Positions 9,584 to 45,098 of a stretch of DNA of 56,171 nucleotides are shown one piece after another; the stretch's first letter is position 1; every line of letters starts with the position of its first letter. The DNA is from an uncultured Staphylococcaceae bacterium (lineage in GTDB: Bacteria; Bacillota_I; Bacilli_A; RFN20; CAG-826): positions 1 through 56,171 of the forward strand of contig CAYLSZ010000003.1 of the NCBI GenBank assembly GCA_964386745.1, in the 5' to 3' direction. Made by a program: the position numbers and the translations under genes. The notes below the pieces were generated by a model. That model worked only from the letters and a program-made list of their open reading frames with translations. It was not told the origin of the DNA and did no database searches.

Positions 9584-9591
9584 ATTACTAC

Positions 9592-10494: not shown

Positions 10495-10562
10495 TCTTCG
10501 TCAATTTAATAACCTTCTTTATGTTGTTTTTTAGTTCTTTCTTTCGCTAGAATAACTTTAAT

Positions 10563-10610
10563 AAAACCCGCGTTTTTAAAGAAAATCCCTGCAGATCTCA
10601 ACTATTTTTT
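10563..10610 (+). repeat. dispersed ~50-bp repeat, copy E (forward)
   Basis: AAAACCCGCGTTTTTAAAGAAAATCCCTGCAGATCTCAACTATTTTTT. CTGCAG at 10589-10594. On the other strand it supplies the AAA AAA TAG end of degV. Confidence 0.9.
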
Positions 10611-18660: not shown

Positions 18661-18704
18661 TACTGTATAGGGCATTAATTTTAATGCTAGTTTTTTGTTT
18701 TTTT

Positions 18705-18754
18705 GAAAAAATAGTTGAGTTCTGCAGGGTTTTTTCTCAAAAACGGCAGTTTTT
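18705..18754 (-). repeat. dispersed ~50-bp repeat, copy G (reverse)
   Basis: GAAAAAATAGTTGAGTTCTGCAGGGTTTTTTCTCAAAAACGGCAGTTTTT. CTGCAG at 18722-18727. Its distal arm abuts and overlaps the corA stop codon. Confidence 0.9.
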
Positions 18755-20264: not shown

Positions 20265-20271
20265 AAAAATA

Positions 20272-20358
20272 AAAAACCACCGTACAGACAATTAAAATCT
20301 TAAGGCTGCTATGTTCCCATCCTGACCTGGTTCGAAGCAATTGCTCACGATGGCTCCT
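20272..20358 (-). ncRNA. ffs: small (4.5S-type) signal recognition particle RNA
   Basis: The minus strand reads GGAGCCAUCGUGAGCAAUUGCUUCGAACCAGGUCAGGAUGGGAACAUAGCAGCC...UACGGUGGUUUUUU. It carries the conserved domain IV CCAGGUCAGG...GGAA tetraloop...AGCAGCC. 5' CCAUCGUG pairs with 3' UACGGUGG. The serS/tadA neighbourhood resembles B. subtilis scr. Confidence 0.85.
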
Positions 20359-20368
20359 TTATTATACA

Positions 20369-21661: not shown

Positions 21662-21707
21662 TTTTAGTCGAGATCTGCAGGGTTTTCTTCTGAAATCTCA
21701 GGTTTTT
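21662..21707 (-). repeat. dispersed ~50-bp repeat, copy H (reverse), forming the 3' end of gyrA
   Basis: TTTTAGTCGAGATCTGCAGGGTTTTCTTCTGAAATCTCAGGTTTTT. CTGCAG at 21675-21680. In gyrA sense it encodes ...KPEISEENPADLD-stop. Confidence 0.8.
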
Positions 21708-24201: not shown

Positions 24202-24214
24202 CGTTTATCCCTCC

Positions 24215-26293: not shown

Positions 26294-26295
26294 AC

Positions 26296-27378: not shown

Positions 27379-27601
27379 CGCAAGTAACTTTATAAAATAG
27401 TTTGTTATCTATGTTTACTTCATCTCCAGGACGAAGTTTTTTACCTCTTTGTTTACACTCTTCCTTATTTACAAAAATAGTGTGGCTAGCGATATACTCT
27501 TTCACTTCGCCTCCACCATACGTTATTCCGATAAACTTGAGCAATTGCCCTAACGTAATATACTCAGTCGTGATTTTTACTTCTTTAACTAAGGGCTCCA
27601 T
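27368..27601 (-). CDS. yaaA: S4-domain RNA-binding protein YaaA
   Basis: ITLGQLLKFIGI...GGGEVKEY...VNKEECKQRGKKLRPGDEV matches B. subtilis YaaA, and the gene sits in the conserved dnaN-yaaA-recF position. Start at ATG 27601. Confidence 0.8.
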   Translation of the reverse strand: MEPLVKEVKITTEYITLGQLLKFIGITYGGGEVKEYIASHTIFVNKEECKQRGKKLRPGDEVNIDNKLFYKVTCDAD

Positions 27602-27707
27602 AGATTCTTTAATATTATATATTAAAGAAGACACAAATAAAAGCAAAATAAAAAGGATTTAAAAATCCTCGAGGAACCCCACGAGAAATTAATTTTCATC
27701 GTGTGGT

Positions 27708-27737
27708 CGGGTTTTAAATCCTTGCAGTTTTAATTTT
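27708..27737 (+). repeat. dispersed repeat, degenerate/truncated copy I
   Basis: CGGGTTTTAAATCCTTGCAGTTTTAATTTT keeps the left arm and CCTTGCAG but lacks ATCTCAAC. Confidence 0.4.
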
Positions 27738-27739
27738 AA

Positions 27740-28873
27740 TTAATAGGTTCTTACTGGAGTAACAACTTGGAGGATACTCTTGTCTTCATTATCGATAAGA
27801 ACGAATGGTTTCATTTCGCCATTGAAGCCAATTGCAACCTCAGGTGAACCAAAGGCTTTTACAGCTTGTTTTACGAATTCAGCATTAAGAGAAATTTCAA
27901 GTCTTTCGCCGCTATATTTGAAGTCGCTAAGTTCTTCAACACCACTACCATTTTGTTGTGATCTCGAACTAATCTCGACTCTATTTTCGGTCATAGTTAA
28001 TTTGACTATCGAATCTCTATCGCCAGTACTAAATAAACTTACACGGTCTAAAGCACTGATAAATTCTTTTGTGTTAATCAAAAGTTGGTATGGGCAACTT
28101 GTAAATTTAGGAATGATATTTTTGGTACTTGGATATTCGCCGCCAATCAAACTAGACGAGACAGTAGTTTTTTCTAATTCGAAAAGGATTTTGTTAGCAG
28201 CAACATAAACTTGGATTGTAGTTTCGTTAGTTATCATACCAATAACTTCTTGTAGCGATCTAACAGGAATGTTGACCTTAATTTTTTCAGGAATCTCAAG
28301 AAGAATTTCTTTTTGAGCTAAACGAGCGCCATCAGTTGCGGTAAATACAACTTTTGAAAGTTCACTTTCTAAATTGATAGCGGTTAATTGAGGTCTATTA
28401 CCAGCTTTGGTAGCAGCCGCAAAGCTTGTTTGGCTAACAGCCTTTGCAAGACTATCCGTATTCAATTCGATATGAACACCAGTTTCAGAGAAATCCATTT
28501 CTGCAAATTCTCTAGCATCTATGACGTTGAGTTGATATTCACTCTTATCAGTTCTTATATAAGCCATCGATTCGTCTAAGATTTCGAAACTTATTTCTTC
28601 GCATTCGAGTTTCTTTATAAGTTCATTAAATGAGTATGCAGGAACTAAAGTTGAACCAGGAATAACGTCTCTAATTATTTGGATACCGTTATTCACGACC
28701 GGAAGAATAGTTTGAATAGATAATTCTCCGTTTGATCCTGTTAAAGTTAGTTCAGTTTCGGTTAAAACTAATTTAATAAAGGTATACGCATGATTAGCAT
28801 GCTTTGAAGGACTAACTTTTGATGCTAGTGACAACCCTTTAATTAATTCTTCTCTGATGATTTTGAACTTCAT
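27740..28873 (-). CDS. dnaN: DNA polymerase III beta sliding clamp
   Basis: 377 aa with three-domain clamp pattern, immediately downstream of dnaA. RBS GGAGGGAG. Confidence 0.93.
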   Translation of the reverse strand: MKFKIIREELIKGLSLASKVSPSKHANHAYTFIKLVLTETELTLTGSNGELSIQTILPVVNNGIQIIRDVIPGSTLVPAYSFNELIKKLECEEISFEILDESMAYIRTDKSEYQLNVIDAREFAEMDFSETGVHIELNTDSLAKAVSQTSFAAATKAGNRPQLTAINLESELSKVVFTATDGARLAQKEILLEIPEKIKVNIPVRSLQEVIGMITNETTIQVYVAANKILFELEKTTVSSSLIGGEYPSTKNIIPKFTSCPYQLLINTKEFISALDRVSLFSTGDRDSIVKLTMTENRVEISSRSQQNGSGVEELSDFKYSGERLEISLNAEFVKQAVKAFGSPEVAIGFNGEMKPFVLIDNEDKSILQVVTPVRTY

Positions 28874-28929
28874 AATCTCCCTCCTTTTTATTTCTTTAAA
28901 TTATGATTTATAGTTATATTAATTATTCC

Positions 28930-28947
28930 TGTGGATAGTGTGGATAA
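28930..28947. promoter_or_regulatory. two tandem DnaA boxes in the dnaA-dnaN spacer
   Basis: TGTGGATAG (28930-28938) and TGTGGATAA (28939-28947), the complement of TTATCCACA. Confidence 0.8.
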
Positions 28948-28968
28948 CTCGTTTGTTTTTCCAAAAAG

Positions 28969-30342
28969 TTACGATTTATTCGACGAAATTTTTGTTTTGA
29001 GTTTGTTGATAACTCCAGGAATTTCTTTATCTTTTTTCAACATCCCTTCCACCTTGTTATAGCTATACATAATAGTCGCGTGGTCTCTATTTCCGAAGAC
29101 TTCTCCTATTTTTGTGTAAGGCGTATCTAACATTGTTCTAATTAAGTATATAGCAATTTGACGGGCAAAGACTATGTCTTTGGTTTTGATTTTTCCAGTA
29201 ATTTGACTGGAATTTATGCCGTAATACGTAGCAACTACATTAAGAATTCTTTGAATACTGATTTTGTTTTTGTTTGTTTTAGTGTCAATCAATGTGCTTA
29301 AAGCATCTTGAGTAACATCTATATCGATATGATCTAAATGGTTGATTGTGCAGTAAAAAACTAGCCTATTTAACGCGCCTTCTAGGCTTCTAATCGAGTC
29401 TTTAAAGGAGTCAGCGATGAAGTATAAAACGTCGTCATCGAAGGCTTTTACGTTATAGGTAGAATTGTCAATCTTCTTGCGTAAAATCTCTAAACAGAGG
29501 TCGGTTGTCGGTTTTTGAATCTCGACTGTTAAACCTCTAAGGAATCTAGTAACCAATCTATCGCTCAAACCACTTAATTCGGATGGTAAACGGTCGCAAG
29601 TGATGACAATTTGCTTTCCTTGGCGGATAAACGATTCAAAAACTGCAAAAAAGAACTCTTCTGTCTTGGTTTTGTTTTGTAAAAGTTGAATATCGTCGAC
29701 TAAAAACACATCAAAACCAAGAATAAAAACTTTTAGATCGTCTTCTTTTTTCTCACCACTAACGTATTTTATATATTCATCGACAAAATCTTGACTTGAA
29801 CAGAACAAAATTTTCTTAAGGGGTAGTTTTTCTCTAATGTAATTGCCAATAGCGTTAAGTAAATGTGTCTTACCTAAACCGGATTGGCTATATATAAATA
29901 ATGGGTTATAAAAATCTCCTGGATTAGATGCAACAATAAGAGCTGCGCTTTGCGCTTCTCTATTGGTTGGGCCTATAACAAAATTGTCAAACGTATATAA
30001 AGATTCTAAATAATTGTTAGGAAAGAACGGAGTTTTTTCAACTTTTGTTTCGGTCTTGTTTTTGTCAAGCAACGCTTCTTCTGTTTCAAAAATCATTTCG
30101 TAATTTGTGCCTGAAATACTGGTCACAATATCGCTTAACATGACGCTATATTTTTGAGAAATTAAAGTCGAGCTGAGTGAATTCGGACAACTAATCACCA
30201 TCTTGTTTGAGTCAACCGAAAAGATGTAAGTGTCTTTAAAAAACGCATCGTAAACACGTCTTTCGTTGACTTTTTCGCTAGTCACTTCAAGGACTTTTTT
30301 CCATAAATTATTCAGCTCATTAGTGTTTGAAATTCTTTCCAT
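28969..30342 (-). CDS. dnaA: chromosomal replication initiator DnaA
   Basis: AAA+ GLGKTHLLNAIGNY, FLVDDIQ, and a C-terminal domain IV (VFARQIAIYLIRTMLD...GNRDHATIMY). Confidence 0.97.
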   Translation of the reverse strand: MERISNTNELNNLWKKVLEVTSEKVNERRVYDAFFKDTYIFSVDSNKMVISCPNSLSSTLISQKYSVMLSDIVTSISGTNYEMIFETEEALLDKNKTETKVEKTPFFPNNYLESLYTFDNFVIGPTNREAQSAALIVASNPGDFYNPLFIYSQSGLGKTHLLNAIGNYIREKLPLKKILFCSSQDFVDEYIKYVSGEKKEDDLKVFILGFDVFLVDDIQLLQNKTKTEEFFFAVFESFIRQGKQIVITCDRLPSELSGLSDRLVTRFLRGLTVEIQKPTTDLCLEILRKKIDNSTYNVKAFDDDVLYFIADSFKDSIRSLEGALNRLVFYCTINHLDHIDIDVTQDALSTLIDTKTNKNKISIQRILNVVATYYGINSSQITGKIKTKDIVFARQIAIYLIRTMLDTPYTKIGEVFGNRDHATIMYSYNKVEGMLKKDKEIPGVINKLKTKISSNKS

Positions 30343-30705
30343 AAATTTTTTGTTCGGAAATATTCTAGCATTAATATAAAAAATAGAAATTAGGAAATTT
30401 TTGACTTCCTAGTTTTTCCACATTTTTGTGCAAAAATACCTTCGATTTTGCCTATATTTTTATGGTTTTCCACAACTTTTATTGTGGATAAACACCTCCA
30501 AATTGTGAAAAACTCAAAAAAGTTGAAAAAAACTCCTTAGTTTTCCATATTTTCAAAAAAATTGAACTAAAAAAAGTCTAGTATTTATCAATAAAAAACC
30601 GACTTTTCCACATATTTCAAAATCGTTTATTAACACTTGTTTAAATTGTGGAGATTTTGTTCATTACCCATTTTTAACCCCGAAACCACCCTCCACATCC
30701 TTTGT
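30343..30705. other. oriC: DnaA-box cluster with AT-rich stretches
   Basis: TTTTCCACA at 30414-22, 30466-74 and 30604-12. A perfect TGTGGATAA at 30483-91. Weaker boxes at 30504-12, 30541-49, 30647-55 and 30690-97. Gene orientation switches here. Confidence 0.85.
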
Positions 30706-30735
30706 TTGACATATATGTATAAATACATATATAAT
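30706..30735 (+). promoter_or_regulatory. sigma-70-type promoter of rpmH
   Basis: TTGACA (30706-11), 18-nt spacer, TATAAT (30730-35). Embedded in an AT-rich imperfect palindrome. GGAGG RBS at 30752-56. Confidence 0.55.
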
Positions 30736-30763
30736 TTATTTCGCAATTTTTTGGAGGCGTATT

Positions 30764-30901
30764 ATGAAAAGAACTTATCAACCTAGTAAATTACATAAAG
30801 CAAGAGTTAGTGGTTTTAGAGCTAGAATGGCCACTCCTACCGGAAGAAAAATCCTTGCTAACAGACGTGCAAAAGGCAGAAAAAATTTAGTTAACGCTTA
30901 A
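30764..30901 (+). CDS. rpmH: 50S ribosomal protein L34
   Basis: Hand translation gives [45 protein letters not shown]. Not in the ORF track because it is under 60 aa. Confidence 0.95.
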
Positions 30902-30904
30902 TAA

Positions 30905-31240
30905 ATGAAGAAAAAGAATAGAGTCAAAAAATATTTAGAGTTTAAAAAAATCCTTAACAAACGAAAATTTTATCGAAATAGCAGATATTGCTTATATTAT
31001 CAAGAAAACGAACTTGATTATGCCCGTGTTGGGATACTTGTAACTAAGAAAAATGGAAATGCAGTTATAAGAAATAAAATAAAACGACAAGTTAGATCAG
31101 TGATAGACGAAGCGATGGATTTTACAAAAAATCTCGATGTAATCGTCGTCATATCACAAAAATACGATACGAACGAATTTGAATATAATAGGGAAAAACT
31201 CTTAGAACTCTTCTTGGCTCTATTAGGAGAAAAGAAATGA
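30905..31240 (+). CDS. rnpA: RNase P protein component
   Basis: 111 aa, basic, VGILVTKKNGNAVIRNKIKRQVR motif, downstream of rpmH. Confidence 0.9.
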   Translation: MKKKNRVKKYLEFKKILNKRKFYRNSRYCLYYQENELDYARVGILVTKKNGNAVIRNKIKRQVRSVIDEAMDFTKNLDVIVVISQKYDTNEFEYNREKLLELFLALLGEKK

Positions 31241-33483
31241 AAAAGAAAAATAAACGCTTTTTAGGGTTTACAGCTGTTTGTGGTGGCATAGTACTTCTAC
31301 TTGCTTCTTGTAGTAGTTTCTGTTCCGCTCAAGATAGCGCTAGCTATCGTTATGCTTATGACCCTGTTCATACTGATTTTTTCGAAACTGAAGAGGCCGC
31401 AAAAGAATATGTTTTAGAAACATTCCAAACCGGTGTTATAGAAGATACCACTACTTCAGTTTATTACGATTCGAGTAGAACTAACGAAATAACTTTAGAT
31501 AATGTTGGCGATATAACTATCGATTCTGTTGAAAACGGACAAATAGTTACAACTAGCCTTATTAAATCGACTGACGCAAGTGATAGCGACTTTAATTTCA
31601 CCGACGAAATCGCTCAAAATGGCGCAATCTATTATTTAGAATCTGGTGTTTATACGGTTTATTATGAAACTGTTGATGAAGACACTGGTGAAGGAACTGG
31701 TGAAACTGGTAGCGCGACTTTTGTATTTAGTAAAAATAGTTATATCCAAGCTTTAGAACTTGCTGGCACTACTTTAGCAAGCAATGCATCTTATACAAGT
31801 TTAAGCACCTTACCTGCTAATGCTTTTTGGAACATGCTCGATAGCAAAACTATCGATGAGATGATTTCAAAAGCAGAGGAAGATAACTATATTTCTAAAG
31901 TTGCATCAGAAAACGAAGGTATTACCCTTTACGAGTTTTTCTATGGTTATAGCGAGTTAGCTTATGATGATTACGTCGCTAATCCAACCGATGAAAAACT
32001 TGAAATTATGCTTAATGGTGGCGAATATGTCACCGATGATGGTCAAACTGACGATATTTTAGGAAGATATAATTCCTTATTTTCCATTTATGGGAAATAT
32101 AAATTTATTAGCGACGATACAGTCGACGAATTAAATATGGATGACGGTGAATACTGGGGCAAAATTACTCAATGGAACCAAGAAATTTATGAAGAAAATA
32201 ATTGTGTCGACGGTATCGTAATGAATACAGACTATCTCGCATATTATCAATCGCAATTAGATTCAACTGTTTCGAGTTTGAATAGTTGTATCACGATTAG
32301 TGAAGGATATTATGGACACGTATATGAAGATGCTTTATATGATGGCGTCTTGATGACTGATAAATCGAGTTGGGGCGACGCTTGGAGTCATGGTTGGCTC
32401 GAAGGTTTACTCGTTTTCCCAATTGCCTATATGGTTGAATACTTCTCCCACTCCTTCGGTATGAATGGTTGGGGACAAATTGCAGCTGTCTTACTTGTTA
32501 CTTTAATTGTTAGAGCGCTCTTCTCTTTGATTACGCTCCCTTCAACAATCCAACAACAAAAGATGCAAAACTTACAACCAGAAATGGCTAAGTTGCAACA
32601 AAAATATCCAAATTCTGATAGCAATGAATACGAAAAACAACGTTTAGCTCAGGCGCAGCTGAACCTATATAAACGACATAAAGTCCATCCATTCTTGTCG
32701 TTCCTTGTCTTATTTATACAATTCCCGCTCTTTATCTGTGTTTGGAATGGTATGCGAGGAGCTGCAAGTTTATCGGTTGATGCTATTTTTGGTCTTAGGT
32801 TAAGTGATACTATTTCGAGTGTTTTATTCACTTGGAGCAACTGGCCAGGTGCACAATGTTGGACTGCGTTAATCTTAATCTTGCTCATGTCAGGCGCCCA
32901 AATTATGGCTATGCTTCTTCCACAAATCTTACAAAAACGTAGGATGAAGAAGGTTAGTAATATGGTCACTAAGACCGTTAAGAGCGGCGCTCAAAATAAA
33001 TCTCAACGTCAAATGAAGATTGTTCAATGGGTTATGACGATCGTCATTATATTTATGGGTTTCACCTTACCATCTGCTATGGGCGTTTATTGGTTAGCTG
33101 GTGCTTTATTCTCAATGCTTCAAACCACAATTATGCATTTTGCTATGGCTAGAGGCAGCAATAGAAACGGACCAAAAACTATCGATAAAACCAAGACTAA
33201 AAAGGATAAAAAAGCCCCAAAAGATAAGTCTTTAGGTGCTTCTAAAAAGAAAGAAAAAGCCGAAAAAATCGAGACTGAAACTGTTGAAACTAAAAAGAAG
33301 AAAATCAACACCAAAGTCAACGAAGATAAAGTCATTGACGTAAAAGATTTATCTGAAAATAAGGTAGAAGAAACTCCTGCTCCAACTGAAGTTATTGATA
33401 CTCCAGTTACCGCAGAAGAAACTACTACCACTTCAACAGAAGACGTCATCGATATTGATGATTTAGCGAATAAAAATTCTTAA
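31237..33483 (+). CDS. yidC: membrane protein insertase YidC with large N-terminal lipoprotein domain and K/E/T-rich tail
   Basis: Lipobox LLLASCSS. An extracytoplasmic domain of about 365 aa. YidC/Oxa1 core (LPSTIQQQKMQNLQPEMAKLQQKY...HKVHPF...PSAMGVYW). Charged C-terminal tail of about 110 aa. Confidence 0.85.
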   Translation: MKKKNKRFLGFTAVCGGIVLLLASCSSFCSAQDSASYRYAYDPVHTDFFETEEAAKEYVLETFQTGVIEDTTTSVYYDSSRTNEITLDNVGDITIDSVENGQIVTTSLIKSTDASDSDFNFTDEIAQNGAIYYLESGVYTVYYETVDEDTGEGTGETGSATFVFSKNSYIQALELAGTTLASNASYTSLSTLPANAFWNMLDSKTIDEMISKAEEDNYISKVASENEGITLYEFFYGYSELAYDDYVANPTDEKLEIMLNGGEYVTDDGQTDDILGRYNSLFSIYGKYKFISDDTVDELNMDDGEYWGKITQWNQEIYEENNCVDGIVMNTDYLAYYQSQLDSTVSSLNSCITISEGYYGHVYEDALYDGVLMTDKSSWGDAWSHGWLEGLLVFPIAYMVEYFSHSFGMNGWGQIAAVLLVTLIVRALFSLITLPSTIQQQKMQNLQPEMAKLQQKYPNSDSNEYEKQRLAQAQLNLYKRHKVHPFLSFLVLFIQFPLFICVWNGMRGAASLSVDAIFGLRLSDTISSVLFTWSNWPGAQCWTALILILLMSGAQIMAMLLPQILQKRRMKKVSNMVTKTVKSGAQNKSQRQMKIVQWVMTIVIIFMGFTLPSAMGVYWLAGALFSMLQTTIMHFAMARGSNRNGPKTIDKTKTKKDKKAPKDKSLGASKKKEKAEKIETETVETKKKKINTKVNEDKVIDVKDLSENKVEETPAPTEVIDTPVTAEETTTTSTEDVIDIDDLANKNS

Positions 33484-33502
33484 TATATAAAGAGGTTTAG
33501 TT

Positions 33503-34192
33503 ATGAAAAGATATTCAGGTAAAAAAATGGATGAAGTTTTAGCAGAAGCCTGCAAAGCCGAAGGTGTAACACTTGAAAACCTCATCTACGAAGTTGAAGA
33601 AGAAAAAAATACTTTATTTAGAAAGGTGGCAACAATTAGAGTTTATGACACCGCCGATATGATTGAGTATGCCGAAAACTATTTAAAAAAAGTTATCGAA
33701 GGACTCGGCTTAGAGGTTTCGCTTAAAACTTTTTATCGCGATGGCGTTGCTAAAATCTTAATTGAAACCAACCGTAACGCATTAATTATTGGTAATAACG
33801 GTTCTACTCTTCAAGCTCTTAACGATTTAGTTAAGCTTGCAGTTAGTAGAAAATATAAAAGAAAAATGCGTATTTTACTCGATATAAGTGACTATAAAGA
33901 TAGAAAATATAAAAGATCTATCTTCGTCGCTAAAAAATGCGCTAAAGAAGTTTTAAAAACTCATGTCGATATTAAACTCGACCCAATGACACCAGACGAA
34001 AGAAAGAAAGTCCATAACGCTTTAGCAGTATTTAAAGATATTAAAACTGAATCTATTGGCGATGGAAAAGATAGAGCTATCGTAATTAAATACGTTGGTC
34101 CAACCAAAAAAGAACCAAAGAAATTTGTTAAAGAAAAAATAGTTGAAACTACTACTGAAAAAGAAGAAACTACAGTAAAAACTGAAGAATAA
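33503..34192 (+). CDS. khpB: Jag/KhpB RNA-binding protein (KH + R3H)
   Basis: R3H-like ERKKVHNALAVFKDIKTESIGDGKDRAIVI, in the conserved yidC-jag position. Confidence 0.85.
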   Translation: MKRYSGKKMDEVLAEACKAEGVTLENLIYEVEEEKNTLFRKVATIRVYDTADMIEYAENYLKKVIEGLGLEVSLKTFYRDGVAKILIETNRNALIIGNNGSTLQALNDLVKLAVSRKYKRKMRILLDISDYKDRKYKRSIFVAKKCAKEVLKTHVDIKLDPMTPDERKKVHNALAVFKDIKTESIGDGKDRAIVIKYVGPTKKEPKKFVKEKIVETTTEKEETTVKTEE

Positions 34193-34194
34193 AT

Positions 34195-35523
34195 ATGTTA
34201 GAAAAAACCATTGTAGCTCTTGCTACTCCACCTCTAAGAAGCGCTTTAGCAATCGTTAGATTGAGCGGAGAGGACTGTTTTGATGTTGTTTCCAACTTCT
34301 TTTCTAAGACTATAAATATCGACAAAAATAACGGAATTCTTCATGGATATATAAAAGATAAGGGTGAAATTATAGACGAAGTTGTTCTTTTATTTTATAA
34401 GCATCCTCATTCTTTTACTGGTGAAGATTCCGTTGAAATTATTTCTCATGGAACACCTTTTATCTTTAATAAGATTATTTCTTTAGCGATCGCTAATGGC
34501 GCTAGAATGGCCGAAAGAGGCGAGTTTACTAATAGAGCGTATCTAAATGGTAAGTTAGACCTCATTCAAGCTGAGTCTATTAATGATTTAATTAACGCCG
34601 AAACTGAAGAAAGTAAGAAAATTTCTATGATGGCTTTAACAGGTGAAACCATAAAAGAAATCTTACCTATTAAACAAGGCTTAGGTGACCTTTTAGCTAA
34701 CATTGAAGCTAACTTTGACTATAGCGAATATAACGATCTCATCGATATGGATTTTAAAAAAATAGTTGAGATCTGCAGGGTTATTTCTCAAAAAACGGAG
34801 TTTTTAATCAAAAATGCAGTCAAAGGAAAGATTATTAAAGATGGTGTAAATGTCGCTATTGTTGGTAAACCAAACGTCGGTAAATCATCTTTACTGAATT
34901 CGTTATTAAACGAAAATAAAGCTATCGTTTCTAGTTATGAAGGTACTACTCGAGATGTCGTTGAAGGCAGGATTAATCTTGGTGGAGTTATCTTAAATTT
35001 ATACGACACAGCGGGCATTCGCGAATCAAGCGATTATGTAGAATCAATCGGTATCTCGAAAAGTAAAGAGATTATTGAAAAGGCTGATATTATCCTTGCT
35101 CTATTCGATAGTGATAAATTTGATAAGGAAGATAATGAGATTTTAGACCTCATTAAAGACAAAAAATATATAAAAGTTTTTAATAAAAAGGACTCTGTTA
35201 AATACACCAAAAAAGGCGAAATTTTAATTAGCGCGTTGAATAATGATGTCGATGCTTTAAAGAATGAAATTCTTAAAATTTTAGGCATTGATGAAAAAGA
35301 TTTTAACACTCCTTCTTTAGCTAACGAACGCGAAATTGGTTTATTAAAAGGCGTTAAATCTGACCTTAATGAAGTTATAGAAAAAGCAAGCGCTGGTATT
35401 ACTATTGATATCCTTGTAGAAACTATAAAACAAGCCTATCTTAAAGTCTTATCTATCACTGGCGAAGTCTATGATTTTGATATGACAAAAGAGATTTTCT
35501 CAAGATTTTGCTTAGGTAAATAA
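34195..35523 (+). CDS. mnmE: tRNA modification GTPase MnmE
   Basis: G-domain GKPNVGKSSLLN, DTAGIRE, NKKD, and the C-terminal FCLGK motif. Confidence 0.95.
   Translation: MLEKTIVALATPPLRSALAIVRLSGEDCFDVVSNFFSKTINIDKNNGILHGYIKDKGEIIDEVVLLFYKHPHSFTGEDSVEIISHGTPFIFNKIISLAIANGARMAERGEFTNRAYLNGKLDLIQAESINDLINAETEESKKISMMALTGETIKEILPIKQGLGDLLANIEANFDYSEYNDLIDMDFKKIVEICRVISQKTEFLIKNAVKGKIIKDGVNVAIVGKPNVGKSSLLNSLLNENKAIVSSYEGTTRDVVEGRINLGGVILNLYDTAGIRESSDYVESIGISKSKEIIEKADIILALFDSDKFDKEDNEILDLIKDKKYIKVFNKKDSVKYTKKGEILISALNNDVDALKNEILKILGIDEKDFNTPSLANEREIGLLKGVKSDLNEVIEKASAGITIDILVETIKQAYLKVLSITGEVYDFDMTKEIFSRFCLGK
34756..34805 (-). repeat. dispersed ~50-bp repeat, copy J (reverse), inside mnmE
   Basis: AAAAAAATAGTTGAGATCTGCAGGGTTATTTCTCAAAAAACGGAGTTTTT. 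CTGCAG at 34773-34778. Translated as KKIVEICRVISQKTEF. Confidence 0.9.
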
Positions 35524-35524
35524 A

Positions 35525-36298
35525 ATGATTTTTGATACCCATATTCACTTAAACGAACCTCGAATTTTAGCTAATCTTGATGTTTATTTAGCTGAAGCGA
35601 TTTCTAAAGGAATTAATAATTTTCTTTGTGTTGGATGGGATGTGGATAGTAGTAAAAAAGCGGTCGAAATAGCTAATAATTACAAGGGAGTTTATGCCGC
35701 AGTTGGCGTTATCCCAACCGAACATAAAACTTGGGATAAAGATTCTATAGAAGAGATTAGAAAACTAGCAAAATCTAGTAAAAAAGTAGTCGCTATCGGA
35801 GAAATTGGTCTCGATTATTATTGGGAAAATAGCGACGAAATAAAAATAAAACAAAAAGAAATGTTTATAGCACAACTTCAACTCGCGGAAGAGCTAGATT
35901 TACCTATCTCTATTCACTGCCGCGACGCTATTCAAGATACTTTTGACATAGTCAAAAAATTCCCAAAAGTTAAAGGAATAATGCATTGTTATAGCGGATC
36001 TTATGAAATGGCTAAAGAATTTGCTAAGCTCGGCTATAAGATTGCATTAGGCGGTGCTTTAACATTTAAAAACGCGGTTAAACCTAAAGAAGTTTTAGAA
36101 AAATTAGACCTCAAAAACATAGTTTTTGAAACAGACGCTCCATATTTAGCGCCTATGCCATATCGTGGTAAGTTAAATGAACCTGCTTTTATATATGAAA
36201 CAGTGAAATTTGCTGCTAAATATTTGAATATGGATCAAGACGAGTTAGAAAATATCGCTTATAAAAACTCGTTAGAAATTTTACGTATCGATGAATAA
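35525..36298 (+). CDS. tatD: TatD-family metal-dependent DNase/hydrolase
   Basis: IFDTHIHLN, EIGLDYYW, HCRDA and FETDAPYL motifs. Confidence 0.9.
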   Translation: MIFDTHIHLNEPRILANLDVYLAEAISKGINNFLCVGWDVDSSKKAVEIANNYKGVYAAVGVIPTEHKTWDKDSIEEIRKLAKSSKKVVAIGEIGLDYYWENSDEIKIKQKEMFIAQLQLAEELDLPISIHCRDAIQDTFDIVKKFPKVKGIMHCYSGSYEMAKEFAKLGYKIALGGALTFKNAVKPKEVLEKLDLKNIVFETDAPYLAPMPYRGKLNEPAFIYETVKFAAKYLNMDQDELENIAYKNSLEILRIDE

Positions 36299-36851
36299 AT
36301 TAAAAATAGATAATTTGATAGTTGTTGAAGGCAAAACTGATATAGATTTTTTATCTAGTTTTATCGATGGAAAATTCTATTCAGTGAATGGTTCTTTCAT
36401 TTCTATAGATGACTTAAATTATCTAAAAGAGGTCAATAAAAAGAATAAAATCATCGTTCTAACTGATCCTGATTATCCTGGATTATCGATTAGAAATAAG
36501 ATAAACGAATATTTAGGTAACGATGTTTATAACGCTTATGTTCGTAAAGAATATTCGATTAAAAATCATAAAGTTGGCGTAGCTGAATCGACCAAACAAG
36601 AGGTTATTAACGCTTTAAGCAACCTAAAACTATATAAAAGCGACGTTACAAGCGATTTAAAAAATATAGATTTGTTTGAACTAGGACTATCAGGACAAGA
36701 CTCATACGAATTAAGAAAAGAGTTATGCGATACTTACAATATCGGTTATTCTAATAGCAAACAACTCTTAAAGAAATTAAAATTATTAGGTATCAATAAA
36801 ACTGATTTAAACGAGATGGTGAAAAATGTTAACACAAAAAGAGATAATTGA
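36291..36851 (+). CDS. rnmV: ribonuclease M5 (Toprim)
   Basis: LIVVEGKTDIDFL and LTDPDYPG Toprim motifs, in the conserved tatD-rnmV-rsmA order. Confidence 0.85.
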   Translation: MNKLKIDNLIVVEGKTDIDFLSSFIDGKFYSVNGSFISIDDLNYLKEVNKKNKIIVLTDPDYPGLSIRNKINEYLGNDVYNAYVRKEYSIKNHKVGVAESTKQEVINALSNLKLYKSDVTSDLKNIDLFELGLSGQDSYELRKELCDTYNIGYSNSKQLLKKLKLLGINKTDLNEMVKNVNTKRDN

Positions 36852-37647
36852 TTTTTATAAATTAGAAAATTCGCACGCCAAAAAAGAACTTGGTCAAAAC
36901 TTTTTGCTTAGCGAAGAAATTGCTAATCAAATAGCGGATTCTTTAGACCTTCAAAAAGAAGATAAACTATTAGAGATTGGTCCTGGATTAGGCGCTATCA
37001 CTGAAAAGTTAATAAATAAAACTGAAAAATATACAGCCGTTGATGTTGATAAAAAACTTATAAACTTTTTACAAAACGCATATAAGGACACAAATCTCAA
37101 TGTTGTAAAAGAGAACATTTTAAAGTTCAGAGATTTCGATTTTAATAAAGTGGTCGGGAATCTTCCTTATTACATAACGACTGATATCATTGAATATATT
37201 GCTCTGAATTTTGAAAATCTAGAAACCGCTACATTTATGGTTCAAAGCGAATTTTATGAACGCATTACAACAAAAGATAAAAGAATTAAACGTCCGCTAA
37301 ATTATTTGCTTGAATATTTATTCGATATTAAGTTTGTGACCAAGGCTAAAAACAACCAATTTTTCCCTATTCCAACTGTTGATTCGGTAGTATTTAAAAT
37401 AACTAAAAATCGAGAAAAAAAGTTGAGTTCTGCAGGGTTTTTGTACAAAATCATAAGAATTTTGTTTACTAATCGTCGCAAAAACGTGAACAATAATATA
37501 GGAATTTTGCTTAAATCCGAAGAAGAAAAAGCACAACTTTGGAAAGAAGCAAATATTGCTCCAACAACCCGAGCCGAAGACTTAACTTTAGATGATTTTA
37601 TTCGCATTAGTGAAATCATATTGAAAATAAAAAAGATAAATTTATAA
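36826..37647 (+). CDS. rsmA: 16S rRNA (adenine1518/1519-N6)-dimethyltransferase
   Basis: LGQNFL, EIGPGLGAIT, GNLPYYIT, FPIPTVDS. Confidence 0.93.
   Translation: MLTQKEIIDFYKLENSHAKKELGQNFLLSEEIANQIADSLDLQKEDKLLEIGPGLGAITEKLINKTEKYTAVDVDKKLINFLQNAYKDTNLNVVKENILKFRDFDFNKVVGNLPYYITTDIIEYIALNFENLETATFMVQSEFYERITTKDKRIKRPLNYLLEYLFDIKFVTKAKNNQFFPIPTVDSVVFKITKNREKKLSSAGFLYKIIRILFTNRRKNVNNNIGILLKSEEEKAQLWKEANIAPTTRAEDLTLDDFIRISEIILKIKKINL
37414..37467 (-). repeat. dispersed ~50-bp repeat, copy K (reverse), inside rsmA
   Basis: GAAAAAAAGTTGAGTTCTGCAGGGTTTTTGTACAAAATCATAAGAATTTTGTTT. CTGCAG at 37430-37435. Translated as EKKLSSAGFLYKI, a different frame from copy J. Confidence 0.85.
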
Positions 37648-37659: not shown

Positions 37660-38508
37660 ATGGTAGAAAAAGCTTACGCCAAAATAAACTTAGGCCTTAA
37701 TGTTTTAGATAAAAATGATGATGGATATCATAATTTAGATACAATCATTGTTCCTTTAAAATTACATGATACTTTAGTCATAACAACCTTATCTGAAAAG
37801 GCTTCAGATGACTTTGTTACCTGCGATGAATATTCATTAAAGGTTAATAAAAATAATATTTGCCATAAAGCTATCCAAATTTTAAGAGATAAATACGGAT
37901 TTAAACAAAAATTTAGAATTCACATTCATAAAAATATATTTGTTTTAGCTGGATTAGGCGGCGGAAGTGCCGATGCAGCCGCAACAATTCGTGGCGTATG
38001 CAAAATGTTAAAAATTGCGCCTACAATCGAAGAATTACACGAAATTGGCCGTTCTTTAGGCTGGGATGTACCATGGTCAATTGAATCAAAACCATCTTTT
38101 GTGCGTAATAGAGGCACGGAAATGGAGTCTTTCGAACATTGTAGAAAAGATTATGTCTTGCTTGTTAAACCTCTTAAAGGTTTATCGACTGCCGATGTAT
38201 TTTTAGAAAGCGATACTTATGAGAAAGACAATCGCGATTTAAAAGTGACTAAAGAGGCATTCGCAAATGATAATCTTGAGGAATTAAATAACAATCTTGT
38301 GAATAACTTAGAACAAGCAGCCGTTAATTTGCTCCCTGAAGCTAAAGAATTAAAAGAGAAATTGCTCCAAGAAGGATTCGATACAGTTTGTATGACTGGT
38401 AGTGGTAGCACGTTCTTCTGTATAACCAAAAATAAAAAGTTAGCCAATAAAATGGCTGCTAAATACTATTACGACCACTATCAAGTTGAGTTAACAACAT
38501 TCTTATAA
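37660..38508 (+). CDS. ispE: GHMP kinase, IspE (4-diphosphocytidyl-2-C-methyl-D-erythritol kinase) homologue
   Basis: AYAKINLGLNV and GLGGGSADAAA motifs. ATG at 37660; the track start is an upstream TTG. Confidence 0.8.
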   Translation: MVEKAYAKINLGLNVLDKNDDGYHNLDTIIVPLKLHDTLVITTLSEKASDDFVTCDEYSLKVNKNNICHKAIQILRDKYGFKQKFRIHIHKNIFVLAGLGGGSADAAATIRGVCKMLKIAPTIEELHEIGRSLGWDVPWSIESKPSFVRNRGTEMESFEHCRKDYVLLVKPLKGLSTADVFLESDTYEKDNRDLKVTKEAFANDNLEELNNNLVNNLEQAAVNLLPEAKELKEKLLQEGFDTVCMTGSGSTFFCITKNKKLANKMAAKYYYDHYQVELTTFL

Positions 38509-38550
38509 AACCTGCGTTTTTAAAGAAAAACCTTGCAGATCTCAACTAAA
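38507..38550 (+). repeat. dispersed ~50-bp repeat, copy L (forward)
   Basis: AAAACCTGCGTTTTTAAAGAAAAACCTTGCAGATCTCAACTAAA. The left arm is nearly identical to copy E. It starts inside the ispE TAA stop. Confidence 0.85.
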
Positions 38551-38563
38551 ATTTATGAAAAAT

Positions 38564-41325: not shown

Positions 41326-41460
41326 AAAGTGGTTTTATAGCATTTTTAATGCGAGTTGTAAGGAAGGGTTTTGAGGCCGAAAATTAGGCAATAAATGGGT
41401 TAATTTTAATAGGAAAAATATGGTAAAAATTTGTCTCGTTTTACAAAGTTATCAGTTGAG

Positions 41461-41508
41461 AAAAACCTCAGTTTTCCACGAAAAACCCTGCAGAACCCCA
41501 ATATTTTT
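41461..41508 (+). repeat. dispersed ~50-bp repeat, copy M (forward)
   Basis: AAAAACCTCAGTTTTCCACGAAAAACCCTGCAGAACCCCAATATTTTT. CTGCAG at 41488-41493. Lies in the divergent ppdK/kinase spacer. Confidence 0.85.
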
Positions 41509-41586
41509 GTGAAAATTTCGAAATTTCTCGAGCTATTTTCCATTAAAATGGATACATTTAAGAAACTTTAATTTATAATATTGTCT

Positions 41587-43155: not shown

Positions 43156-43181
43156 AGCAACTCAATCGAGTTGCTTTTTTT
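43156..43181 (+). terminator. rho-independent terminator (flanked by A and T runs, possibly bidirectional)
   Basis: AGCAACTC-aatc-GAGTTGCT followed by TTTTTTT. Confidence 0.8.
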
Positions 43182-43184
43182 GAG

Positions 43185-43231
43185 GAAAATATGTCAGTTC
43201 TGCAAGGTTTTTGCTCAAAATCAGCTGTTTT
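43185..43231 (-). repeat. dispersed ~50-bp repeat, copy N (reverse, core CTGCAA)
   Basis: GAAAATATGTCAGTTCTGCAAGGTTTTTGCTCAAAATCAGCTGTTTT. Its distal arm contains the TGA stop of the ABC gene at 43221. Confidence 0.75.
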
Positions 43232-45098
43232 CTGCTTCGGTTTGAGCCATTGGATTTATGCCTGCGAATTGAGAATTATATAGTTCTGCGTAGAATCCGT
43301 TTTTCGCTAATAAATCTTTATGATTACCGATTTCAACGATGTGACCTTGTCTCATAACGATGATGAGTTTAGCGTTTTTAATCGTCGATAATCTATGAGC
43401 GATAATGAACGAAGTTCTATTTTCCATGACCCTATCTAAAGCGTCTTGAATAGCTTGTTCGGTACGAGTATCGACGCTACTTGTAGCTTCATCTAAAATC
43501 ATGATTTTTGGTTTAGAGATAATAGCTCTAGCAATCGTTAATAATTGACGTTGACCTTGAGAAATATTTGTTCCATCTTCGTTTAAGATGAAGTCATATT
43601 TGCCAGGCAAGGTTTCAATAAAGTGATCGCAATGTGCCTCTTTACAAGCTTGAACGATTTCTTCATCGGTTGCATTTTGATCACCGTAGAGCAAGTTTTC
43701 TTTAATGGTTCCTCTAAATAACCATGTATCTTGTAAAACCATACCGACGCTTCTTCTAAGGTTACCACGAGTATATTCAGTAGTTGGAATATCATCTAAT
43801 TTAATTTGACCACTATTGATTTCATAAAATCTCATAATGAGGTTAACCATAGTGGTTTTACCAGCGCCAGTAGGACCAACAATAGCGACCGTATCGCCTG
43901 CATTAATCTTTAAGTTAAAGTCTTCGATTAATGGTTTATTTGGCAAATATTGGAAATAGACGTGATCGAATTCGAATGCACCTTTGATATCGTCTTCGAC
44001 ATCGATTGCACCTTCTTTATCAGGAATAATTTCTTCTTCATCGAGAAGTTTATAAACTCTTTCGCCACTAGCGACGACAGATTGAATAATGTTAATAATT
44101 TGTCCGACTTGTTGGAATGGTCTATTGAATATATTTAAGAAGATAAAGAAGGTAATCATACTCGCTGGGTCGCGAATAATACCTCCAACGACGGCAATTC
44201 CTACGTAAGCTAAGTTATTAATAAAGTTTGTTGTTGGGAAGATAAGACCACTCAAGAATTGCGAGATTTGGTCAGCTTTAGCCATCTTTGAATTCGTTTT
44301 ATTAAATTCATCGACAGCATCTTGTTCTTTATTAAATAATTTAAGAACAACGTATCCAGCATAGTCCTCTTCAACTAAACCATCTAAGATACCAAGTTCT
44401 TTTCTATAAGCAATGAATTGCTTTTGTGAGAATTTACTTACTAAGAAGACGACAAGGATAGTAAATGGTAAGGAACAAAGTGCGACTAAAGCTAGTTGCC
44501 ACTTCGTAATAAACATCGCGACAAGCGTTCCAACAAAGAGCATGACGCCACTAGTAAGTTGAACGATGATATTTTGTAAGTTTCTAGCGATATTATCGAC
44601 ATCGTTAGTTCCTATAGATAACGTATCGCCATAAGGAACTCTATCGTAATAGGATAATGGAAGTCTATCGAGTTTATCTTTAATTTCCTTTCTCATGTTA
44701 TAGGCGTATCTATTTGATAAGCTAACGGTCATAAATTCGGCTAACCATGAGAAGAAAGCGGCTAAAACATATAAACCTAATAAGATTCCAAATCTAGAGA
44801 AGAAGAATGACCATTTAATGGATAAGGTTATAGTTCCGTCAGTTGCGATAGCAAATGATAATAATTCAGTTTCAGCGTCAGTTATATTAATAGCTGTACT
44901 TGTATCGACTGATGGAAACGCCCCATTAAGTAAGTTATTTAAAATAATAGGAGAAACTATCGTTAAGACGCTCGAAACGACAGTCATAAGCATGATGATA
45001 ATGATTAAGACGCGTTCTTTTTTAAACTCCTTAATCATTCTTTTAAATGTCGCGCCAAAGTTTTCAGGCTTTTCGACAGAACGATTCATTGGTGGCAT
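43221..45098 (-). CDS. ABC exporter, fused permease/ATPase (heterodimer partner 2)
   Basis: Six-TM type I exporter domain. GPTGAGKTT, LSQGQRQLL, ILDEATSSVD. Confidence 0.9.
   Translation of the reverse strand: MPPMNRSVEKPENFGATFKRMIKEFKKERVLIIIIMLMTVVSSVLTIVSPIILNNLLNGAFPSVDTSTAINITDAETELLSFAIATDGTITLSIKWSFFFSRFGILLGLYVLAAFFSWLAEFMTVSLSNRYAYNMRKEIKDKLDRLPLSYYDRVPYGDTLSIGTNDVDNIARNLQNIIVQLTSGVMLFVGTLVAMFITKWQLALVALCSLPFTILVVFLVSKFSQKQFIAYRKELGILDGLVEEDYAGYVVLKLFNKEQDAVDEFNKTNSKMAKADQISQFLSGLIFPTTNFINNLAYVGIAVVGGIIRDPASMITFFIFLNIFNRPFQQVGQIINIIQSVVASGERVYKLLDEEEIIPDKEGAIDVEDDIKGAFEFDHVYFQYLPNKPLIEDFNLKINAGDTVAIVGPTGAGKTTMVNLIMRFYEINSGQIKLDDIPTTEYTRGNLRRSVGMVLQDTWLFRGTIKENLLYGDQNATDEEIVQACKEAHCDHFIETLPGKYDFILNEDGTNISQGQRQLLTIARAIISKPKIMILDEATSSVDTRTEQAIQDALDRVMENRTSFIIAHRLSTIKNAKLIIVMRQGHIVEIGNHKDLLAKNGFYAELYNSQFAGINPMAQTEAENS

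Follow-up and report, generated by a model that had tools for sequence, protein, structure and literature searches.

A dispersed DNA motif of 28 to 55 bases, located in spacers and overlaid on codons, in the oriC region of an uncultured Mollicutes-like gut bacterium

Motif copies and their setting in the oriC region

The window, that is, the whole stretch of 56,171 nucleotides analysed, is 33.7% GC and covers the oriC region of an uncultured Mollicutes-like gut bacterium of the Bacilli, with oriC placed between dnaA (28969-30342) and rnpA (30905). It contains 15 strong copies and one weak copy of a motif with the consensus TTTTGAAAAAATAGTTGAGWTCTGCAGGGTTTTT-N3-4-AAAAAC-N4-GTTTTT. The motif measures 28 to 55 bases, its 28-bp asymmetric core, AAAAATAGTTGAGWTYTGCAGGGTTTTT, being extended in this genome by phased T5/A5/T5 tracts to approximately 55 bp. 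When up to 3 mismatches were allowed, GTTGAGWTCTGCAGGGTT occurred 13 times in the window, against 0.01 expected from shuffles, and a profile built from the copies (nhmmer) scored the 15 copies at 32-55 bits (E values from 1e-7 to 8e-15) and the weak one at 18.8 bits. Density was 0.27 copies per kb. The near-invariant 28-bp core carries about 34 bits of information and the full 58 nt about 59 bits, the motif columns being either nearly invariant or free, not uniformly diverged.

Ten copies lie in or at spacers. The first (2551-2608, plus strand, 34.3 bits by nhmmer) occupies the divergent spacer between a DUF4143 ATPase gene and an IS3-family insertion sequence. The second (4419-4475, minus strand, 44.9 bits) is found at the 3' end of a glycosyltransferase gene, whose stop codon is the motif's own TAG (4463-4465) and which is followed by a hairpin and T-run (4432-4408). 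The copy in the divergent spacer upstream of tldD (5532-5588, plus strand, 49.5 bits) falls inside a mechanically called ORF (4463-5629), the family match of which begins only at residue 49, so that the copy is probably upstream of the true start. Two copies delimit a restriction-modification cassette: the right boundary is the copy in the convergent spacer between pmbA and a methyltransferase gene (8433-8486, minus strand, 45.0 bits), and the left one is the copy at the 3' end of degV (10559-10615, minus strand, 51.6 bits), where the motif's TAG again provides the stop codon (10602-10604). The best-scoring copy (18701-18756, plus strand, 54.9 bits) lies in the spacer 3' of corA, antisense relative to both neighbouring genes. 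Another (21654-21709, plus strand, 42.0 bits) covers in antisense the gyrA tail, namely the last 15 codons plus the stop, and adjoins the serS ribosome-binding site; its orthologous copy in L091 is located directly past the gyrA stop. The copy in the convergent ispE/ppdK spacer (38505-38559, minus strand, 42.8 bits) is identical in site and orientation in L003, L005, L007 and L009; that in the divergent spacer separating ppdK from a sugar-kinase gene (41456-41514, minus strand, 50.6 bits) has the opposite orientation in L003, L005, L007 and L011. Past the sugar-kinase gene, the copy in the next, convergent spacer (43179-43234, plus strand, 44.6 bits) overlaps the last codons of a 625-aa ABC exporter and has orthologous copies in L003 and L006. 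The weak, core-only copy (46051-46083, plus strand) is antisense inside the gene for a 711-aa ABC exporter, where it reads A-R-R-S-P-L.

Coding sequence holds only 5-6 of the 15 copies although 90% of the window is coding (binomial P ~3e-6), and terminator hairpins adjoin many copies. The strong copies are split 8 to 7 between the strands; relative to oriC, 8 follow the leading strand and 7 do not, and a polar chromosome motif of the Chi or KOPS kind was therefore rejected, there being no skew with replication direction. Taken together, the copies are mostly located in short spacers at gene ends but also atop codons, in any frame and on either strand.

Overlay of the motif on codons

Five copies lie inside genes. 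Those in mnmE (34752-34806, plus strand, residues 186-204, 48.3 bits) and rsmA (37410-37464, plus strand, residues 195-213, 42.4 bits) are in the sense orientation, as are those in a TetR-family gene (13035-13092, minus strand, residues 68-88, SFQKIIQDLQGFFQKNDHFLR, 40.4 bits) and mfd (50294-50352, plus strand, residues 278-298, NKFYKFMGFLQGFHFNLADFL, 32.0 bits), whereas the tilS copy (53385-53442, minus strand, residues 62-81, ...KTVQFSTIFGNF, 47.0 bits) is antisense. An earlier note on this DNA had claimed that the core is translated differently from gene to gene, and all of its translations proved correct: V-E-I-C-R-V in frame in mnmE (34765-34782), L-S-S-A-G-F in rsmA, L-Q-G-F in mfd and the TetR gene, N-P-A-D-L-D-stop in gyrA and T-V-Q-F-S-T in tilS. 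As the note had also stated, all three frames are used and both orientations occur within genes. The codon offset of CTGCAG is 2 in mnmE, 1 in rsmA and 0 in mfd and TetR, and three copies are antisense. The placement given in the note is likewise right: in RsmA the motif lies between VDS and RRK, and in MnmE it lies between DYSEY and the P-loop, which were found to be separated by 44 residues.

The proposal that the motif is overlaid on existing codons rather than inserted was borne out by comparison with orthologues, no indel being associated with any of the five internal copies (5/5). A gap at the motif site was found in 0 of 16 MnmE orthologues, and none was seen against 14 RsmA orthologues, 13 TilS homologues, 11 TetR homologues or the L099 orthologue of Mfd. 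Compared with solved structures, MnmE showed only a 3-residue gap, just upstream of the motif site (TrmE, 1xzp), RsmA was 2 residues shorter at the motif site (KsgA, 6ifx/6ifs) and TilS was 5 residues shorter just before it (3a2k). The copy at the end of gyrA does not lengthen the acidic tail of GyrA, which is 16 residues shorter than that of L091. It had been conceded that the matches might be no better than chance in AT-rich, K/F-rich coding sequence, which would have refuted the overlay. The scores observed within coding sequences were 48.3, 47.0, 42.4, 40.4, 37.0 and 32.0 bits; when the same proteins were re-encoded 100 times following the codon usage of the window, the top score was 26.9 bits, and 100 codon shuffles gave at most 11.6 bits. 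As neither control ever reached the observed scores, the similarity to the motif is not a by-product of base or residue composition. These results establish that copies arise and persist by base substitution wherever the sequence tolerates it.

Conservation, dialects and loss among relatives

Conservation was claimed to act on the nucleotides, and synonymous sites in mnmE bear this out. Among the codons whose amino acid is invariant in 8 motif-bearing genomes, 5/5 within the motif were also invariant as codons, compared to 32/212 (15%) gene-wide, an outcome with a probability of 0.15^5, about 8e-5. The longest run invariant in all 8 genomes was the motif's AAAAAATAGTTGAG (14 nt), the next longest having 8 nt. 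GAG and TGC are among the conserved motif codons, and GGG is kept in rsmA. At synonymous sites, the motif has been held unchanged over long spans of evolution. Related motif-bearing genomes encode the peptides KIVEIC[KR], FAGFLYKI, FSTIF and GFLQG at matching positions, but close relatives without the motif lack them; since the peptides track motif presence, the sites must be old and have shaped the proteins.

Only the 28-nt core is common to related genomes and to unlinked rumen and human-gut contigs, the 3' A/T module being specific to this genome. In mnmE, this module overwrote about 8 codons without an indel, leaving VISQKTEFL in place of ENIKYIDKL. In five genomes the rsmA copy begins, in its 5' half, with CATAGATTTTGCAGGG, CATGGATTTTGCAGGG, GCGTGAGTTTTGCAGGG, GAGTGGGGTTTTGCAGGG and AAGTTGAGTTCTGCAGGG, a series that approaches the consensus gradually at one orthologous site. 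A C precedes TGCA in all 15 strong window copies (14 TCTGCA, 1 ACTGCA), whereas relatives mostly have TTTGCA; in rsmA this T-to-C core change costs an F-to-S replacement. The motif variants are concerted, species-specific 'dialects', the consensus shifting together at all sites of a genome. Copies are also present on contigs non-syntenic with the window, for example beside atp and glpK genes, and no copy was found in IMG/VR viral contigs. In two related lineages, L002/L010 and L008/L009, the motif is missing and decayed remnants occupy orthologous sites.

Candidate readers of the motif

The evidence above identifies a double-stranded DNA recognition motif that is neither a mobile insertion nor a structured RNA. 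Because its maintenance is concerted, genome-wide and indel-free, we inferred a trans-acting reader favouring DNA that carries it. Our leading explanation, held tentatively and short of an even chance, is that genome-wide directional pressure maintains the motif in place and that an uptake-signal-like system is its likeliest source; function remains unproven. Biased uptake or gene conversion, the cause suggested in the earlier note, is compatible with the data but has not been demonstrated. The most likely reader would be the DNA-uptake machinery of natural transformation: self-DNA fragments with the motif would be preferentially taken up and then recombined in, so that mutations improving a proto-site may spread and those damaging a site may be replaced, the same molecular drive as described for USS and DUS. 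Loss of the reader would lead to decay of the motif, as might have happened in the two lineages lacking it.

Two of the traits expected of USS and DUS were confirmed for the motif: it is over-represented, dispersed and present on both strands, and in-gene copies consist of codon substitutions that affect peptides. Its density, its balanced orientation and the small share of copies in coding sequence are further points of resemblance. The extended Haemophilus USS is a core followed by phased A/T tracts, which the motif resembles. Genome-wide over-representation on both strands and variants differing between genera are likewise shared with the USS of Pasteurellaceae. Within genes, USS copies are spread over several frames, involve no indels and have shaped the encoded peptides (PMC2817400), as is true of the copies described here. 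The two differ in core length (9 bp in the USS, 28 bp here), in the proportion within ORFs (~65% against ~35%) and in their hosts, which are Gram-negative with proven competence in one case and Mollicutes-like Bacilli, in which uptake is untested, in the other. The DUS of Neisseriaceae is read by a receptor, the minor pilin ComP, of which no counterpart is known in the motif-bearing lineage. As with the motif, about one third of DUS copies are in ORFs, they are concentrated at gene ends and terminators, and gene cassettes are swapped between conserved flanks; DUS are 10-12 bp long and often form inverted pairs making a terminator stem, in contrast to the single copies without dyad symmetry found here. 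In N. meningitidis, 34.5% of uptake sequences are in ORFs (PMC2817400). Lineage-specific DUS 'dialects', comparable to those of the motif, have been described (PMC3630211), and many copies of DUES lie beside terminator hairpins, as here (bioRxiv 10.1101/2025.10.24.684340).

The restriction-modification system in the window is GANTC-type by family match, and its expected site is not contained in the motif. HIP1 of cyanobacteria, a highly iterated 8-bp palindrome linked to methyltransferases, lies over coding sequence with no indels, and its orthologous copies are kept to a degree that the protein does not require. Both features are shared by the motif, which is long and asymmetric instead. Rickettsia palindromic elements (RPE) also provide in-frame repeats inside housekeeping genes, but they are palindromic insertions of ~100-150 bp that lengthen proteins, and the motif shows neither added length nor a palindrome. 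The REP/BIME of enterobacteria are, like the motif, short repeats at gene 3' ends and between convergent genes, where they are bound by host proteins and serve as rearrangement substrates; they differ in being strictly extragenic, species-specific imperfect palindromes, mobilised by RAYT transposases. A REP/RAYT element was rejected given the lack of a consensus structure and the five copies inside genes.

Several observations count against uptake. Descriptions of sequence-specific DNA uptake are so far confined to Pasteurellaceae and Neisseriaceae and include no Gram-positive or Mollicutes-like bacterium. The window and ~40 annotated neighbouring genes revealed neither a competence gene nor a candidate receptor, and ComEC, ComEA, DprA, a competence pilus and a specific receptor were absent among the genes annotated in the window and four related contigs. 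The information in the ~34-bit core or ~59-bit motif is far more than a 1-Mb genome needs and more than USS or DUS contain. Moreover, nearly all sizeable spacers hold exactly one copy each and the long spacers flanking oriC hold none, a pattern that could equally indicate a positional (architectural) role.

The main rival, unlikely in our judgement but a serious contender, is a binding site for a sequence-specific chromosomal protein (architectural, insulator-like or a global regulator); selection would retain about one site at each boundary between transcription units and, in long operons, sites within genes. Exactly one copy was present in 4/4 convergent, 3/5 divergent and 2/5 tandem spacers longer than 100 nt, two in-gene copies occur in each of the long operons, rnpA-ispE and pth-tilS, and site and orientation are kept across genomes at the 3' ends of gyrA and ispE and in mnmE and rsmA. 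The A-tract flanks are typical of bent protein-binding DNA, and the synonymous-site constraint would fit purifying selection on a binding site. On the other hand, copy spacing is no more regular than random (CV 0.88, P=0.41), the motif is not known to match any of the CodY, CcpA/cre, LexA, CIRCE, Noc, parS or dif boxes, its orientation flips within one spacer between genomes, two lineages lost it entirely with gene order unchanged, and the need for 28 invariant bases is unexplained.

More doubtful is ectopic gene conversion or recombination, by which the copies would homogenise and spread among themselves; no outside reader would be involved, and the copies would serve mainly as portable homology or as attachment sites for gene cassettes. 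Two direct copies flank the GANTC restriction-modification cassette, and in a strain that is 95% identical the empty site holds a single hybrid copy, the crossover lying inside the 36-nt core. Two pairs of copies (10559-10615 with 38505-38559, and 18701-18756 with 34752-34806) share 'free' positions beyond permutation expectation (P ~0.02-0.03), which tells against uptake and hints at some templated copying between sites, and the mnmE 3' module resembles a replaced patch (14/24 nt changed). Conversion requires pre-existing homology, however, and in-gene proto-sites match the motif at only 14-22 nt; rsmA orthologues approach the consensus base by base, not in all-or-none patches, shared descent among copies is weakly supported (variance test P=0.31), and conversion alone leaves unexplained how 28 nt remain fixed across genomes only 60% identical in MnmE.

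A role at the RNA level (a protein-binding site in a 3'-UTR or 5'-UTR, a terminator component or a processing signal) is very improbable. Many co-oriented copies in relatives (L075, L076, L079, L081, L083) lie 0-30 nt past a stop codon and are followed by a hairpin terminator, copies directly precede the ribosome-binding site in L075 and L092, and four window copies can be folded into a stem using G-U pairs. Yet the motif has no consensus RNA structure and no matching Rfam family, the 15 copies have an average folding z-score of about -0.1, and terminator hairpins occur on either side of it. In informative tandem spacers 8 copies are co-directional and 4 antisense by our own tally, and the roughly one third of informative copies that are antisense include the best-scoring one, the conserved gyrA 3'-end copy and the tilS copy. 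An intrinsic terminator or structured cis-RNA was rejected on the same grounds, there being no conserved stem. Insertion of a small non-autonomous mobile element (like MITE, REP or RPE) at each site is hardly tenable and already contradicted, although 15 dispersed, mostly intergenic copies of ~55 bp in 56 kb and the IS3-family element in the window might suggest it. Comparison with orthologues reveals no inserted sequence at any site, and the motif lacks terminal inverted repeats, target duplications and a hairpin. Its columns are not uniformly diverged, orthologous sites keep the core across genera, and the window's IS has its own unrelated 25-nt inverted repeats.

Under the uptake-signal-like explanation, the motif would be the first signal for sequence-specific DNA uptake or self-recognition known outside Proteobacteria, 28 bp long throughout a clade of uncultured, genome-reduced Bacilli of gut and rumen, ~55 bp here and secondarily lost in relatives; we regard this as possible, though on the unlikely side. 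The long invariant core also leaves room for recognition by a nucleic-acid guide and not by protein alone. Most known cases of indel-free motifs lying over coding sequence are the uptake signals of two proteobacterial families and cyanobacterial HIP1, and the same overlay behaviour is now found in a Gram-positive-derived, Mollicutes-like gut lineage, with a motif two to three times as long. Genomes with only ~60% identity in MnmE conserve it, and the related motif-less lineages provide a natural loss control. Whichever the reader, comparison of motif-bearing and motif-lacking genomes makes a direct search for its gene possible, and the motif offers a practical marker with which to bin these metagenome-assembled genomes and to recognise DNA that they acquired recently. 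Should a chromosomal protein be the reader, the motif would be a new genome-wide architectural site. Should it be uptake machinery, the range of selective transformation would come to include a new phylum as well as uncultured gut commensals, and such an uptake or self-recognition signal would have enough strength to establish non-preferred codons in essential genes, and amino-acid replacements too.

A repeated DNA motif in an origin-spanning window

Allowing up to 3 mismatches, the 18-mer GTTGAGWTCTGCAGGGTT occurred 13 times in the window against 0.01 expected, and a profile made from the copies gave 15 matches of 32-55 bits and a weak one of 18.8 bits. The motif consensus was TTTTGAAAAAATAGTTGAGWTCTGCAGGGTTTTT-N3-4-AAAAAC-N4-GTTTTT, whose columns were either nearly invariant or free to vary, the core contributing ~34 bits of relative entropy and the 3' module ~16 bits; 12 of the 15 CTGCAG sites of the window fell within motif copies. 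The earlier note had accepted that its proposal would fail if the matches were no better than expected by chance in AT-rich, K/F-rich coding sequence. Two chance controls were run, in which all 39 proteins were re-encoded 100 times with the window's own codon usage, or codons were shuffled within genes, also 100 times. The best motif scores reached were 26.9 bits after re-encoding and 11.6 bits after shuffling, versus 32-48 bits observed in coding sequence, so that a chance origin of these matches is excluded.

The window (G+C 33.7%) reads well with the standard bacterial code and carries dnaA (28969-30342), dnaN, recF, gyrB and gyrA on the minus strand and rnpA, a long yidC, jag, mnmE, tatD, the RNase M5 gene, rsmA and ispE on the plus strand, a gene content that places the replication origin within it. 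The YidC-like gene (31237-33483) encodes 748 aa, of which only residues 416-633 form the 60KD_IMP domain, and no Pfam family matched the N-terminal ~415 residues. The nearest species representatives in the genome collection were metagenome-assembled genomes labelled uncultured Bacilli or uncultured Mollicutes, or Candidatus Onthovivens, with an MnmE identity of only 59-62%, and two short Logan contigs (L098 and L101) matched parts of the window at 94-95% DNA identity.

Overlay on codons and constraint at the nucleotide level

The repeat had been described as overlaid on the codons of housekeeping genes, in all three frames and both orientations, without lengthening the proteins, and this observation was confirmed. 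The translations given for it were all correct on checking: sense copies use codon offset 2 in mnmE, 1 in rsmA and 0 in mfd and the TetR gene, and three copies are antisense. In alignments with orthologues and solved structures, none of the five internal copies, nor that over the gyrA tail, lengthens its protein. No gap was present at the motif site of MnmE against 16 orthologues, RsmA against 14 orthologues, TilS against 13 homologues, Mfd against the orthologue of a related contig (L099) or TetR against 11 homologues (in this last case a word-indexed search gave only a 98%-identical protein, and the distant homologues came from an exhaustive search). Against solved TrmE (1xzp) and MnmE (3geh) the only gap, of 2-3 residues, lies just after DY(S/P)EY, upstream of the motif site, while RsmA is 2 residues shorter at its site than solved KsgA (6ifx/6ifs), TilS is shorter at its site than 3a2k, and the acidic tail of GyrA is 16 residues shorter than that of a related locus (L091), where the same motif comes after the stop codon. 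A clean insertion of 15-17 codons relative to relatives would have refuted the proposal, and with no indel at the internal copies, the interpretation as overlay and not insertion is supported.

Conservation at the nucleotide level, also claimed from the sequence alone, was borne out by the synonymous sites of the mnmE motif codons, which were invariant in 8 genomes. Among these motif-bearing genomes, mnmE has 212 degenerate codon columns with an invariant amino acid, of which 32 (15%) are codon-invariant; inside the motif, 5 out of 5 such columns are (AAA ATA GTT GAG .. TGC). The 14-nt AAAAAATAGTTGAG at 34757 was the longest stretch without any base difference among the eight, the next being 8 nt, and the rsmA codons GCA GGG TTT TT were conserved in the same way. 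The motif-encoded peptides KIVEIC[KR], FAGFLYKI, FSTIF and GFLQG are found at equivalent positions in relatives that have the motif, and other residues occupy these positions in motif-less close relatives (L002, L008, L009 and L010) and in more distant orthologues. The motif shapes the encoded proteins.

In mnmE, similarity to the motif ends after its first 22 nt in the relatives and the window goes on through GGGTTATTTCTCAAAAAACGGAGTTTTT, an extension by which ENIKYIDKL becomes VISQKTEFL with no change in length. At the rsmA site, five genomes matched the 5' half of the core to differing degrees, the window best of all. The base before TGCA is C in 15 of the 15 strong window copies (14 TCTGCA and 1 ACTGCA), relatives having mostly TTTGCA, and in rsmA this C costs a conserved Phe. 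All over the genome, these overlays evolve in concert. Strain-level mismatches inside the motif (1/62 and 2/59) were at or below the 5-6% of the flanks, but on too few sites for this to be of use.

Placement of the copies and their distribution among relatives

The window is 89.9% coding, and copies within coding sequence were rarer than expected (binomial P ~3e-6, our own arithmetic). Only five are fully intragenic (mnmE, rsmA, mfd, tilS and the TetR gene), one overlies the final 15 codons of gyrA, and an ABC exporter gene holds the weak one; the remaining nine are in spacers or across stop codons, and the stop codon of two genes is the motif's own TAG. Exactly one copy was present in 4 of 4 convergent, 3 of 5 divergent and 2 of 5 longer tandem spacers. 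The 13 kb around dnaA/oriC (21710-34750) contain none, though there would be room for one in each of the spacers at 27378-27740 and 30342-30905, and relatives likewise lack copies upstream of mnmE. A replication-polar motif was rejected, orientations relative to replication being 8 to 7; regular spacing was unsupported (P=0.41), and the bias relative to transcription, 8 to 4 in informative spacers, was not significant. Sites conserved across genomes were the gyrA and ispE 3' ends, mnmE, rsmA and the sugar-kinase/ABC spacer. In the divergent ppdK/sugar-kinase spacer (41456-41514) the window and locus L006 (11798) have the motif on the minus strand, and L003 (17579), L005 (17603), L007 (17556) and L011 (17579) have it on the plus strand, which points to inversion or independent re-creation.

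When public metagenomes were searched for exact matches to the 23-nt core, 23 contigs of 25-34% G+C were obtained from rumen and human-gut samples, with 34 profile matches. Only 1 of the 23 was syntenic with the window, and genes on others were for ordinary functions such as ATP synthase, glycerol kinase and peptidases, so the motif occurs across the genome and is not confined to the origin region. These contigs have in common the 28-nt core AAAAATAGTTGAGWTYTGCAGGGTTTTT and lack the window's 3' module. On a rumen contig (L079, 779-824), AAAACCCTGC and a T-run come directly after GCAGGGTTTT of the motif, so that a perfect terminator hairpin takes its 5' arm from part of the motif; inverted pairs of the Neisseria uptake signal (DUS) act in much the same way.

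Among mnmE-syntenic loci, the motif was found in L001, L003-L007 and L011 and not in L002, L008 or L010; L009 had a single weak match, at the ispE site, and more distant loci had nothing. Weak partial remnants persist in L008 and L009 at orthologous sites (mnmE ~10550, rsmA ~13240, ispE 3' ~14600-14620), for instance AAAATAAATGAATTTTGCA in mnmE and a 13-15-bit match after ispE, and look like decaying copies. In a rough MnmE tree the window was the deepest branch and the motif-lacking pairs were nested among motif-bearing genomes. This nesting, together with the remnants, suggests that the motif is ancestral and was lost later in the motif-lacking lineages.

Candidate explanations

The element is thus a DNA-level motif whose copies arise and persist at their sites through substitution, are under constraint at synonymous positions and evolve in concert throughout a genome. 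Our tentative first choice is an uptake-signal-like self-recognition motif, uptake itself being inferred: biased DNA uptake followed by recombination would create and keep copies, and it is ranked first because it is the best-documented process giving exactly this picture. Known uptake signals also lie over existing codons in any frame, the peptides they encode are enriched at particular sites, ~1/3 to 2/3 of their copies are in genes, they are concentrated at terminators, and they have lineage-specific variants and decay after the system is lost. It should be considered that such signals are known only from two proteobacterial families and that a far shorter core would suffice for recognition in a 1-Mb genome. 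Four motif-bearing contigs searched for competence genes carried only ordinary metabolic genes; in the literature, the motif strings appeared in no relevant paper, and no account of uptake signals from Bacillota or Mollicutes came to light.

The presence of one copy per spacer and the conserved site positions favour the main rival, a site for an architectural or regulatory protein (binding inferred) kept by ordinary selection, which we consider unlikely but still a serious contender. Ectopic conversion or recombination among copies, ranked third, appears improbable as the overall explanation, and has direct support at one site. A two-gene restriction-modification cassette (8489-10419), composed by family match of a CcrM/HinfI-like adenine methyltransferase (8489-9583) and an HpyAIV-family endonuclease (9592-10419), lies between two direct motif copies (8433-10615). 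In L101, a 95%-identical strain contig, the cassette is absent and one hybrid copy (3038-3073), with the crossover inside the core, joins degV to the 3' end of pmbA, so that the limits of the gained or lost segment coincide exactly with motif copies. Moreover, 13-15 of the 20 poorly conserved free positions are shared by the copies at 18701-18756 and 34752-34806, and by those at 10559-10615 and 38505-38559, more than column permutations give (P ~0.02-0.03), which hints at occasional templated copying between distant sites.

Other identities were rejected. At gathering thresholds, the only Rfam match in the window was a small SRP RNA gene (20265-20361, minus strand) between a tadA-like deaminase gene and serS, nothing relevant emerged when 10 kb with five copies were scanned permissively, RNAalifold predicted zero pairs in the motif and individual copies folded with a mean z-score near 0, ruling out a structured RNA. 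About 1/3 of informative copies, the best-scoring one included, are antisense, which excludes a sense-strand RNA signal. For a promoter with TTGAGA, the -10 position 17 nt on is CAAAAA, TAAAAA or a ribosome-binding site, and by inspection no sigma-54 or phage-type promoter fitted. Absence of the motif from IMG/VR viral contigs led us to reject a phage origin. An insertion like those of MITE, REP or RPE elements was rejected because the sites show no indels and the motif has neither terminal repeats nor a hairpin. The IS3-family insertion sequence (2977-4244; orfA 3024-3383; orfB, with an rve integrase core, 3431-4240), which had no match among plasmids, has its own 25-nt terminal inverted repeats (2977-3001 and 4220-4244) and the motif lies outside it; in the spacer upstream (2416-2530), beside a motif copy, a 23-nt unit (ATTTTCAGTGATTTGAAAGATTT / TGTTTCAGTTGTTTGAAAGATTT) is repeated five times in tandem. 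A tie to the restriction-modification genes through CTGCAG or AGATCT was discarded, as both enzyme families recognise GANTC (specificity assigned by family match), which is absent from the motif.

A trans-acting reader of the motif is inferred and remains unidentified; the phenomenon itself belongs to a type already described, but the lineage is new and the motif unusually long.
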